Part shown: in pieces, positions 11,583 through 14,500 of the stretch
Numbering within the stretch: the first letter of the stretch is position 1
Layout of the letters: each line of letters starts with the position of its first letter
Source of the DNA: Phycisphaera mikurensis NBRC 102666
Lineage (GTDB): Bacteria > Planctomycetota > Phycisphaerae > Phycisphaerales > Phycisphaeraceae
Direction: 5' to 3'
NCBI RefSeq assembly: GCF_000284115.1
Contig: NC_017080.1
Location: forward strand, 2,430,001-2,462,000
Length of the DNA stretch: 32,000 nucleotides
Notes under the pieces: model-generated
The model's input: the letters and a program-made list of their open reading frames with translations, nothing else
What the model was told of the DNA's origin: nothing
Database searches by the model: none
Program-made: the position numbers and the translations under genes

Positions 11583-14500
11583 GTGCCTGAGATCCCGCAG
11601 GCGCCATCCCGCAAGAGCGAGCCCGCCGCGCCCGCGGTGCGGGCGGCGTCGGCCGTCGGCTACGTCGAGCTCGCGGTCCGCAGCAACTTCACCTTCCTCG
11701 AGGGCGCCAGCCACCCCGACGAGCTCGTCGCGCAGTGCGCCGTGCTCGGCCACCGGGCCGCGGCCCTCGCCGACACCAACTCGCTCGCGGGCGTCGTCCG
11801 GGCTCACGTCGCCGCCGAACGCATCGGCATCCCGCTGCTGGTCGGCTGCCGGCTCGTTCTGCACGCGCCCGCGGGCGCGAGCCCCAACGAGCCCGACGCG
11901 ACCCGCGCCGCCTGGCTCACGCTGCTGGTCTACCCCACCTGCGTGAAGAGCTACGGCCGCCTGTGCCGCCTGCTCACCCGCGGCAAACGCCGCAGCGAGA
12001 AGGGCCGCTGCCACCTCACCCCGCACGACCTGCTCGAGCACCGCGAGGGCCTGATCGCGATCGCGGTGCCCGGCGACGGCCCGCTCGACGAGGACCGCGT
12101 CGACGCCATCCACCACCTCCGCCGCGCTTTCCCGCGCGACGACTTCTTCGTCGCCACCGCCCACGGCGACGGCGCCGACGCGGGCGCCGCACTCCGCCGC
12201 GCCCGCCACCTCGCCCAGCGGGTCGGCGCCCCCACCGTCGCCGCGCACGACGTGCTCTACCACGACCCCGCCCGCCGGCCGATGCAGGACGTCGTGGGCT
12301 GCATCCGCAACGGCTGCACGCTCGACGCCGCCGGCTTCCGGCTGAACCCCTCCGCCCACCGCGCGCTGCTGCCGCCCGAAGAGGTGGCCCGCCGCTTCGC
12401 CGACGACCCCCAAGCCGTCCGCCGCACCGTCCGCATCGCCAACCGCGTGCAGCGGTTCTCCCTCTCCCAGATCCGCTACCGCTACCCCGGCGAGGTCGTG
12501 CCGCCGGGCCGCACGGCGATGCAGCACCTCGCGCAGCTCACCTGGGCCAACGCCGGCCCGCGCCTCGGCCACGCCGTTCCGGTCGCCGGCTGGCCGACGG
12601 AGCGGACCGCCTTCCCGCCGGCCTGCCTCGTCGGGCCCTTTCCGCCCCCGGAGGTGCTGACGCCGCACGTGGAGGCGCACTTCCTCGCGACGCTCACCCA
12701 CGAGCTGAACCTCATCGCCGAGCTCGGCTACGCCCACTACTTCCTCACCGTCGAGGACCTGGTCGGCTACGCCCGCGGCCGCGGCATCCTCTGCCAGGGC
12801 CGCGGCGCCGCCGCCAACAGCGTCGTCTGCTACTGCCTGGGCGTCACCGACGCCGACCCGCGGCGCATCAACACGCTCTTCGAGCGCTTCGTCAGCCGCG
12901 AACGCAAAGAGCCGCCCGACATCGACGTCGACTTCGAGCACGACCGCCGCGAGGAGGTCATCCAGTACCTCTACACGAAGTACGGCCGCGACCGCGCCGC
13001 GCTCTGCGCCAACGTCATCACCTACCGCGGCCGGTCCGCCGTGCGCGAGGTCGGCAAGACGCTGGGGCTCTCGCTGGACGTCGTCGACCGGCTGGCCAAG
13101 GGCATCGATTGGTGGCACGGCGGCCCCATCGGCCCCGACCAGCTCGCCGAGCTGAAGCTCGACCCACGCAAGCCCGCCATCGCGCACCTGGTCCGCCTCT
13201 CCACCGAGATCCAGGGCTTCCCCCGCCACCTCGGCCAGCACAGCGGCGGCTTCGTGCTCACCGAAGACCCGCTCTGCGACCTCGTCCCGATCGAGAACGC
13301 CTCGATGGCCGACCGCACGACCATCAGTTGGGACAAGGACGACATCGACGCGGTGGGCATGTTGAAGGTGGACGTGTTGGCGATTGGGTTGTTGTCGGTG
13401 TTGTCGAAGGTGTTCGCGTTGTTGGGGGGGCAAGAACGAGCAAGCGAAGAAGCGAAGAAGCGAAGAAGCGAAGGAGTCAGCAGAACACAGGAACAGAACC
13501 ATGGAAGAGCGTCCGCACGCGTCACGGAGTCACCGCAACCTGATCGTCTGGCAGAGAGGCATGGCACTCTGCCGTCAGATTTACCGATGCACGCAGGCGA
13601 TGCCAAGCGGGGAGCTGTACGGGTTGACCGGCCAGATGCGGCGGGCTTCGGTGTCGGTTCCCTCAAATATTGCGGAAGGTTTTGGGCGGGAGGGACAGAA
13701 GGAGTTTCTCCGGCACCTGCGGATTGCGCAGGGTTCTCTGAACGAGCTTGCGACTCAGCACGAGCTGGCAACGTCGATGGACATGATCCCAAGCGATCCG
13801 ACGACGATCCGTTTGATCGAAGAAACCGACCTCGTCCTGCGGGGCTTTATTCGCAGCGTCAAGCAGAGCTTGAGAAAGACGCCATCTCCCTCTGCCTGAC
13901 TTCTTCGCTTCCTCGCTTCTCCGCTTCTTCGCTTCCTCCTCCTGGCTCGCTCCGCGACATCCTCCGCCTCCCCGACGACCCCGCCACCTACGACATGATC
14001 TGCGCCGCCGACACCGTCGGCGTGTTCCAGATCGAATCGAGGGCCCAGATGTCGATGCTCCCGCGGCTCCGGCCCAGGACCTTCTACGACTTGGTCATCG
14101 AGGTGGCGATCGTGCGGCCCGGGCCGATCCAGGGCGACATGGTGCACCCGTACCTGCGTCGCCGGCGGGGCGAGGAGCCCGTGGAGTACCCCGATGAGAA
14201 GGTCGAGTGGATCCTGGGCAAGACGCTCGGCGTGCCGCTGTTCCAGGAGCAGGCGATGCAGCTGGCGATCCACTGCGCCGGTTTCACGCCCGACGAGGCC
14301 GACAAGCTGCGCCGGGCGGTCACCGGCTTCCGGCACCACGGCCTCATCACCGCCTTCGGCGAGCAGATCACCGGCGGCATGATCGAGCGCGGCTACACGA
14401 AGGAATTCGCCGAGCGTGTGTTCAGCCAAATCCAGGGCTTCAGCCACTACGGCTTCCCCGAGAGCCACGCCGCCAGCTTCGCGATCCTCACCTACGCCAG

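Follow-up and report, generated by a model that had tools for sequence, protein, structure and literature searches.

Insertion of a hairpin-bounded cassette into dnaE2

We analyzed a 32-kb stretch of DNA (hereafter, the window) from Phycisphaera mikurensis NBRC 102666 (Planctomycetota, 74% guanine plus cytosine, GC), in which a hairpin-bounded cassette carrying a four-helix-bundle gene lies inside dnaE2, the gene for an error-prone DNA polymerase. The open reading frame (ORF) at 11271–15566 runs for 4296 nt without any stop and is 100% identical to the annotated 1309-residue 'error-prone DNA polymerase' of P. mikurensis (P0001). It matches the error-prone DNA polymerase model NF004225 with 1289.6 bits, and Pfam recognizes PHP, DNA_pol3_alpha, finger, HHH_6 and OB domains. 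The domain match has a break between the palm and the finger domain, from the end of PF07733 (ORF residue 704) to the start of PF17657 (residue 901). The cassette, element 1, occupies this break at site 1, located between the palm aspartate motif (after the third catalytic aspartate) and the finger domain. The main features of the locus are as follows.

11583–15566, + strand: dnaE2 (ImuC), the host gene (NF004225, Pfam domains, identity to P0001)
13428–13946, + strand: element 1, a 519-bp cassette at site 1 that is bounded by a hairpin and carries the four-helix-bundle gene, equal to 173 DnaE2-frame codons (orthologue alignments, the P0002/P0003 pair described below, GC content)
13430–13484, + strand: left arm of element 1, (CGAAGAAG)n, T-free, terminating in GAGTCAGCAG (DnaE2 translation ...EEAKKRRSEGVSR)
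13891–13946, + strand: right arm of element 1, (CTTCNYCG)n, A-free (DnaE2 translation LTSSLPRFSASSLPPPG)
13501–13899, + strand: nested four-helix-bundle gene (PF05635/TIGR02436, 'S23p'), 132 aa, in frame +1 relative to dnaE2 (profile matches, purifying selection)

A first-pass annotation, made from the sequence alone, had proposed a segment of 521 bp at 13428–13948 that interrupts dnaE2 without breaking its frame. The frame is indeed open across the whole ORF. In the orthologue alignment the insertion begins after ...SKVFALLG and extends from 13428 to about 13946, so that the proposed start is exact and the proposed end is off by 2–5 nt. The GC content of the element is 0.59 (0.58–0.60 over the separate measurements), compared to 0.72 (0.72–0.74) for its host, and across the segment it falls from 0.72–0.78 to 0.57–0.62.

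The ends of element 1 form the longest inverted repeat of the window. The ungapped arms (13430–13480 and 13896–13946) are 51 nt long, 86% complementary and 415 nt apart, and the gapped arms (13430–13484 and 13891–13946) match at 48 of 56 positions with a score of 71, compared to a maximum of 28 for shuffled sequences. The inverted repeat reported earlier is thus confirmed. The minimum free energy RNA fold of 13420–13955 includes the terminal stem, with an energy of −236.4 kcal/mol (z = −4.1), which none of 100 shuffled sequences equaled. Both arms are composed of tandem 8-nt units of the family (CGAAGAAG)n, and the DnaE2-frame peptides encoded by the element include EEAKKRRSEGVSR, GAVRVDRPDAAGFGVGSLK and LTSSLPR. 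Rfam searches of the bare hairpin returned only sub-threshold miRNA-like or generic hairpin matches, and no rRNA match was found in 13300–14900.

The nested ORF matches PF05635 with E = 4.9e-32 (110.8 bits, cut-off 33.8) and TIGR02436 with E = 1.1e-31 (109.3 bits, cut-off 24), is similar to the solved structure of Xanthomonas XCC0516 (PDB 2GSC, E = 7e-24), and is 100% identical to a protein annotated in P. mikurensis as 'four helix bundle protein'. It displays the conserved motifs VSVPSNIAEG and GSL.E..TQ, with invariant columns common to 25 homologues. A Shine-Dalgarno sequence, AGGA, is present at 13489–13492, 8 nt upstream of the nested ATG. Thus, both the family of the loop gene and its own ribosome-binding site were read correctly in the first-pass annotation, as was the overall architecture, with its terminal stem, short tandem arm repeats and PF05635 loop gene, which is that of the ORF-bearing intervening sequences (IVSs) of 23S rRNA. 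No known catalytic domain was found in the nested protein with Pfam and NCBI/TIGR-family profiles. PADLOC gave no match, and none were obtained in searches of plasmid DNA and phage proteins.

Distribution among DnaE2 relatives

As had been proposed, element 1 is an insertion rather than an ancestral domain. In an alignment of 18 DnaE2 proteins, P0005, P0006, P0040 and P0102 contain a short linker at site 1, and ten others, ∼50–64% identical to the query, contain an insertion of 170–200 residues at the exact site, bordered by peptides of low complexity that differ by lineage, such as RHEGTEARRHEG ... SCLRASVPS. Among the 120 best relatives, the distance between the motifs flanking site 1 is at least 140 residues in 47, 45–139 residues in 10 and less than 45 residues in 47 (mode 26), and could not be measured in 16. 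The intermediate cases are bare hairpins or remnants. The presence and absence of the insertion are interleaved among close relatives, and the catalytic and structural motifs on either side of it are invariant across hosts that are only ∼50% identical.

DNA was fetched for 11 element-bearing loci. One of these, L204, has a cassette at both site 1 and a second site of dnaE2 (site 2, described below), giving 12 embedded elements. In all 12, complementary arrays of 8-nt units enclose an intact PF05635 homologue, whose frame is offset by +1 from that of dnaE2. In every locus, the GC content of the element is below that of the host (0.51–0.62 vs 0.60–0.72). The arm units vary by lineage (CGAAGAAG, GAAGAGAC, GAGAGACT, AGGCACGR, AGCGACGG, GAGGGACW, AGTTACAR); despite these differences, the arms are always complementary with a period of 8.

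The two cassettes of L204 (5063–5422 and 6365–6718) encode proteins that are 92% identical, with differences mostly at third codon positions, and each has an extra copy of the left arm 3' of the gene, which forms a small 3' hairpin. In L205 (4746–4760/5308–5322) and L208 (4731–4745/5230–5244), the stem runs ∼10 bp into host coding sequence (GGGGATGGTG ... CACCATCCCC, encoding GMVN and HTIPP). This extension is unseen in the other loci and could be due to chance or local conversion.

Two further searches were less informative. To find other host proteins with read-through cassettes, the peptide encoded by the element in the DnaE2 frame was compared by phmmer to 1.84 billion representatives; this search was too insensitive, returning only four matches: P0003, an N-terminal DnaE2 fragment, a 184-aa ORF that corresponds to the −1 frame of a whole element, and a spurious repeat protein. 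A scan of the genome collection for the 15-nt arm motif AAGCGAAGRAGTCAG gave at least 120 chance matches in unrelated taxa, the pattern being too short, and none with multi-unit arms was present among the matches listed.

The DnaE2 frame is kept open

The DnaE2 frame contains no stop in any of the 12 embedded elements, while the other two frames contain 1–13 stops. For comparison, a metagenome scan with the PF05635 alignment provided 80 loci, almost all of them free-standing. Among 37 free-standing homologues with GC contents of 0.51–0.66, only five are stop-free in the corresponding frame, with a mean of ∼3 stops over a core of ∼350 nt. The other alternative frame of free-standing homologues is stop-free in 0 of 68.

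The constraint can be located within the nested gene. A stop in the DnaE2 frame requires a T at the third position of a nested codon, followed by a codon starting with AA, AG or GA. None of the 290 susceptible junctions in the 12 embedded genes has a third-position T, compared to 15.4% of the other third positions; the nested genes' own third-position T usage predicts 44.9 stops at these junctions, and none is observed. In free-standing genes, T is present at 11.4% of the susceptible junctions. The arms are equally free of stops: in all 12 embedded elements the left arm is T-free and the right arm is A-free, which, with a period of 8 nt, leaves them without a stop in every frame. Most arms of free-standing cassettes, which have a period of 7 (units such as GTGAGTG and GGCATTA), are not stop-free.

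The four-helix-bundle frame is under purifying selection. The nucleotide differences between embedded elements number 2973, 2279 and 4892 at the first, second and third positions of nested codons, and those between the two copies of L204 number 11, 3 and 32. The DnaE2-frame peptide, in which R, A, G, S, D and P are frequent, is only ∼30–35% identical where the nested protein is 58–78% identical. In an AlphaFold2 prediction of a 587-aa fragment the insertion is modeled as coil with a predicted local distance difference test (pLDDT) score of 24–36, in a model of low overall quality (mean pLDDT 51.6). The simplest reading is that the insertion would be a junk loop that only needs to be traversed by the ribosome.

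In public annotation, these loci are often represented by the nested gene and the C-terminal part of DnaE2 only, the latter as 'OB-fold nucleic acid binding domain-containing protein' or 'hypothetical protein'. We considered whether such C-terminal ORFs reflect a gene split at the element, and rejected this possibility for L211 and L212. In these two loci, which are located on contigs of 3.3 Mb and 2.2 Mb and were selected because they are annotated in this way, the DnaE2 frame is open throughout (1405 and 1286 codons). The C-terminal-only calls made there despite an open frame (L211, CP060234.1, 3823–7413; L212, 3772–7503) are systematic mis-annotations, which arise once the nested gene is called.

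Turnover of the elements

The DnaE2 proteins P0002 and P0003 differ at three of ∼770 residues outside the insertions (>99% identity). Their site-1 elements have unrelated arms and different four-helix-bundle genes, and their site-2 hairpins are also unrelated, with identical junctions. The element of P0003 resembles that of P. mikurensis, and P0002 is encoded by locus L202. The unrelated elements of such near-identical hosts indicate that turnover is recent. Between P. mikurensis and L202, the nested proteins are 58% identical and the DnaE2 proteins 78% identical; hosts that are far more distant have nested proteins just as similar to that of P. mikurensis. Hairpins located at different sites of one genome use the same unit. 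The sequence comparisons thus indicate that, within a short time, elements at fixed sites undergo replacement or rewriting in a concerted manner.

Neither site 1 nor site 2 shows a target-site duplication or direct repeat at its junctions. A miniature inverted-repeat transposable element or other transposon was rejected, as there is no direct repeat at the junctions and no transposase in the element. Short-read assemblies break at the arms; for example, L001 (Logan SRR12223476, 1261 bp) starts in the left arm, and many of the top PF05635 matches are on contigs of 0.5–2 kb. This suggests that the arms are repeated elsewhere in those genomes.

Other hairpins and their clustering in the mutasome operon

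At least three related hairpins are present within the window. The two other hairpins and the gene upstream of dnaE2 are as follows.

14664–14840, + strand: element 2, a hairpin that lacks an ORF and shares the 8-nt family of element 1, (CGAAGAAG)n, at site 2 of dnaE2 (arms 14676–14753 and 14780–14821)
25125–25356, − strand: third hairpin, a decayed member of a sister family, (GAAGAGAC)x12 (short right-arm remnants 25231–25218 and 25144–25125; same inner end, GAAGTCAG)
9369–11204, + strand: imuB (Y-family-like), directly 5' of dnaE2 (PF00817 and PF11799)

Element 2, which like the third hairpin was absent from the first-pass annotation, is inserted within the same open ORF between ...GWACSL and VRLGLNRV, at a site that precedes the HhH module. 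Its apex, GAAGTCAGCAG...CTGCTGACTTC, is the same as that of element 1, and its left arm has extra unpaired units (14676–14711). The predicted RNA fold has an energy of −98.1 kcal/mol (z = −6.0). Site 2 is empty (18–33 nt) in L203 and L211; among the relatives, 56 have nothing at this site, 52 have an insertion the size of a hairpin and 2 have one the size of a cassette. The third hairpin is intergenic, with an aminotransferase gene on one side and a DinG-type helicase gene on the other. Its unit, GAAGAGAC, is that of the dnaE2 elements in other Planctomycetota (L203, L209, L211).

The dnaE2 gene is assigned, from gene order, to an imuAB-dnaE2 mutasome cassette, because an ImuB-like gene adjoins it upstream. 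The same imuB-dnaE2 order is present in L202–L212. A strict scan of the 11 loci and the window identified ∼25 true hairpins within the imuAB-dnaE2 operons (71.8 kb in total), compared to 0 within the 66.5 kb that flank them; when the ascertained site-1 copies are left out, the counts are ∼14 in the operon and 0–1 in the flanks. Hairpins with the same genome-specific units are also located in imuB- or imuA-like genes and in the PHP part of dnaE2 (L209, 2344–2810; L206, 1955–2622; L204, 572–684 and 2480–2540). The imuB hairpin of L209 has a loop of 307–389 nt with no recognizable PF05635 gene.

Several additional features of the host gene are noted here. The true start of dnaE2 is probably the GTG codon at 11583, since the conserved N-terminus MPExP and the DNA homology to L202 both begin there; the 1309-residue NCBI model begins at 11637. 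An extra insertion of ∼35 residues relative to most orthologues is present at ∼12576–12680 of the window (DnaE2 residues VPVAGWPTERTAFPPACLVGPFPPPEVLTPHV) and is shared with the closest relative, P0002. The array scan detected no hairpin in this region. The GC content of dnaE2 is somewhat low (0.63–0.70 vs 0.74) over 13200–14700, including the sequence between and around the two elements.

Proposed origin and expression of the cassette

The explanation that we favor, and hold to be probable, is that element 1 is a selfish IVS-type cassette in dnaE2, which is read straight through by the ribosomes while the four-helix-bundle protein is made separately. A family of selfish PF05635 cassettes, bracketed by inverted arrays of tandem 7–8-nt units, would have colonized two permissive loops of DnaE2 in the Planctomycetota, and the imuAB-dnaE2 operon elsewhere too. 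The site-1 copy of P. mikurensis would not be removed; ribosomes on dnaE2 would translate through it to give one polypeptide with a non-conserved, probably disordered loop of ∼173 residues, and this long DnaE2 is expected to be active. Synthesis of the four-helix-bundle protein would start separately in the +1 frame, at an ATG with its own Shine-Dalgarno sequence. Selection would hold the host frame open by means of stop-proof arms and of a nested gene that avoids third-position T before AA, AG or GA codons. Of the outcomes put forward in the first-pass annotation, translation through the element as ∼170 additional residues is therefore the one that the stop-free frame of the 12 elements supports. 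By analogy to rRNA, the stem may also form in the mRNA, and RNase III may cut a fraction of the transcripts, freeing the four-helix-bundle mRNA and lowering DnaE2 output.

Several observations weigh against this explanation. Eight of the 11 loci were reached via proteins already called as one long ORF. A search with the C-terminal half of the protein identified approximately 20 C-terminal-only DnaE2 ORFs on contigs longer than 10 kb, and three of those were inspected; one of the three, L210, is frameshifted along the whole gene. Its assembly appears error-prone, and the locus was left out as unreliable. In P0018 the DnaE2 frame is lost immediately 3' of the site-2 hairpin, and P0361 terminates within a site-1 element, such that some copies may be broken. 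The 12 elements are related by descent and, thus, are not fully independent. The mismatches in the arms show no sense-strand excess of G:U over A:C (65 vs 55 in free-standing and 16 vs 22 in embedded elements), so that they do not show whether the stem matters as RNA or as DNA. Lastly, we infer the long DnaE2, its activity and the four-helix-bundle protein from sequence.

A built-in RNase III switch, in which cleavage of the stem severs the mutasome mRNA, keeps the polymerase low and frees the four-helix-bundle mRNA, with read-through on the transcripts that escape, is compatible with read-through rather than exclusive of it, but seems unlikely as the main explanation. The predicted stems of 40–56 bp, the cleavage by RNase III of an identical architecture in rRNA (PMC4990558), the concentration of hairpins in the mutasome operon and the persistence of ORF-less hairpins at both sites all point in this direction. 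However, the comparison of G:U and A:C mismatches gave no sign of sense-RNA-specific selection on the stems, and the many hairpin-free DnaE2 orthologues mark the hairpin as dispensable. Furthermore, enrichment in a rarely expressed, non-essential operon is also predicted by simple tolerance of selfish DNA.

An inactivated or decaying dnaE2, with an open frame left over from a recent insertion into a high-GC genome, would fit the tendency of such genomes to retain long spurious ORFs and the apparently broken state of P0018, P0361 and L210. It is improbable given that the motifs flanking the insertion are invariant across ∼50%-identical hosts, and that the nested genes have diverged to 48–59% identity, yet the 12 elements are free of stops; the elements have GC contents of 51–62%, at which free-standing copies contain ∼3 stops in this frame. 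Excision and religation of the RNA, an outcome raised earlier, or intein-like protein splicing would be helped by the paired ends, which bring both 'exons' together, and bacteria do possess RNA ligases. Read-through is preferred over such removal, which we consider very improbable, because a spliced element or an intein would need no stop-free constraint and its interior would be freed from staying open in the DnaE2 frame. The DnaE2-frame peptide is also not conserved, which rules out a splicing domain, and the products of RNase III are not known to be religated. Both specific candidates were rejected: Pfam on the full ORF identifies polymerase domains only, with no Hint or intein domain, and Rfam gives only sub-threshold generic hairpin matches in place of a group I or group II intron. 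An ancestral, lineage-specific DnaE2 domain in which the nested ORF and the inverted repeat are coincidental could account for the same site being occupied in many orthologues, with DnaE2-frame translations that are weakly alignable. This is hardly credible, since presence and absence are interleaved among close relatives, the composition is foreign, and the alignability stems from the conserved out-of-frame gene. Moreover, >99%-identical DnaE2 proteins carry unrelated elements, L204 has a cassette at both sites, and the same type of cassette is found outside dnaE2 in many phyla.

As an extension of read-through of a selfish cassette, and one that we regard as doubtful, the cassettes could constitute an active mobile system guided by structure or repeats. 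An Avd-like four-helix-bundle protein would recognize the 7–8-nt arm repeats and promote copying or replacement at hairpin-tolerant sites, with the SOS mutasome operon as the preferred niche and spread coupled to DNA damage and error-prone synthesis. Such a system would explain the shared unit within each genome, the unrelated elements in near-identical dnaE2 genes and the operon hot spot.

If the proposed explanation is correct, the 30-year-old puzzle of rRNA intervening sequences, together with the unexplained S23p genes, would extend to protein-coding genes, and the cassette would be a general cross-phylum unit rather than an rRNA curiosity. It would provide a natural, phylum-wide overlap, in a different frame, of a mobile-element gene with a host polymerase gene, in which dual-coding constraint is measurable. 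The mutasome operon would be a refuge for, or be regulated by, long RNA or DNA hairpins, offering a handle on how error-prone synthesis is controlled post-transcriptionally. As the strain is cultured and its genome complete, it would be a tractable system for the function of PF05635 proteins. The analysis also exposes an annotation problem, as many such DnaE2 genes are stored in databases as C-terminal fragments.

Comparison with known systems

The closest counterparts of element 1 are the 23S rRNA IVSs with an S23p ORF, found in Leptospira, Coxiella burnetii, Brucella and Haemophilus. They share with the dnaE2 elements the stem-forming terminal repeats, the tandem repeats in the arms (heptamers in Coxiella, octamers here) and the S23p gene in the loop, as well as a size of 430–760 nt, the use of a few permissive sites in a conserved host gene, and the existence of ORF-less derivatives. 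In Coxiella, the terminal stem of the IVS is 28 bp long and is cut by RNase III, and tandem heptamers (GACAGAT) lie upstream of S23p (PMC4990558). Whereas the rRNA elements are located in helix 25 or helix 45 of 23S rRNA, element 1 lies in the coding sequence of dnaE2 and is compatible with translation, its arms being free of stops, its nested gene avoiding stops in one frame and its frame offset being fixed. RNase III excision without religation is established for the 23S rRNA IVSs; for the dnaE2 element, a stem is predicted.

Free-standing cassettes extend this comparison. Flanking inverted repeats far above shuffled controls are present in 47 of the 75 testable metagenomic PF05635 loci, which span many phyla and GC contents of 0.28–0.65. 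Their arms are always tandem 7- or 8-nt units, purine- or G-rich 5' of the gene and C-rich 3' of it, with a unit specific to each element. An rRNA context was found for none of 40 related metagenomic cassettes. The combination of a hairpin with a four-helix-bundle gene thus appears, from these sequences, to be a general cross-phylum design, of which the Coxiella IVS is one instance. In the metagenomic loci L123, L158 and L183, a cassette lies directly 5' of a host gene (2-oxoacid:ferredoxin oxidoreductase beta, SDR and RfbA), with the −1 frame open from the element into that gene, whose product may be extended at its N-terminus by the translated right arm.

The bAvd proteins, accessory proteins of diversity-generating retroelements, are distant homologues of the nested protein and are small, basic helical-bundle partners of nucleic acid or reverse transcriptase. 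The bAvd family PF22296 co-matches many relatives of the nested protein, and the PHROG 'Avd protein of DGR' gives a weak match to it (E = 0.005). No reverse transcriptase or template/variable repeat pair was seen beside the element, where the neighbors are imuB, dnaE2 and pheS, although the window was not scanned exhaustively.

Arrays of G-rich heptamers (GGGAATC or GGGGAYT) with genus-specific units are known from Xanthomonas and Nostoc, at ∼180 loci that include 70–75 convergent inverted pairs. They are mostly intergenic, show under-representation within coding sequence, and were interpreted as G-quadruplex formers with no link drawn to PF05635 (PMC4692102). The elements described here are similar to them in having genome-specific tandem units (8-mers in this case), which recur at several sites within a single operon.

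Two surveys of DnaE polymerases in bacteria make no mention of such insertions, and nothing comparable was found in the full-text literature on PF05635, TIGR02436 and IVS proteins. Consistent with the view taken in the first-pass annotation, no description of this architecture inside a protein-coding gene was found in the searchable literature. The features not described before are the phylum-conserved dual-coding arrangement, the stop-proof arms, the concerted turnover and the preference for the mutasome operon.

An in-frame precedent, which the first-pass annotation had left unmentioned along with the phylum-wide spread of the elements, is provided by the Rickettsia palindromic elements (RPEs), reportedly described by Ogata et al. 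in 2000 as gene-less, in-frame hairpin repeats of 100–150 bp in protein genes. Both RPEs and the dnaE2 elements are hairpin-forming repeats located in frame within a protein-coding gene, at permissive sites, with the host frame kept. RPEs are translated as extra surface peptide segments, are present in multiple copies per genome and are not built of tandem 7–8-mers, and they are not expected to be related in sequence to the dnaE2 elements. Element 2 is gene-less, as are the RPEs, whereas element 1 differs from them in carrying a conserved gene in another frame, making this segment of dnaE2 dual-coding.

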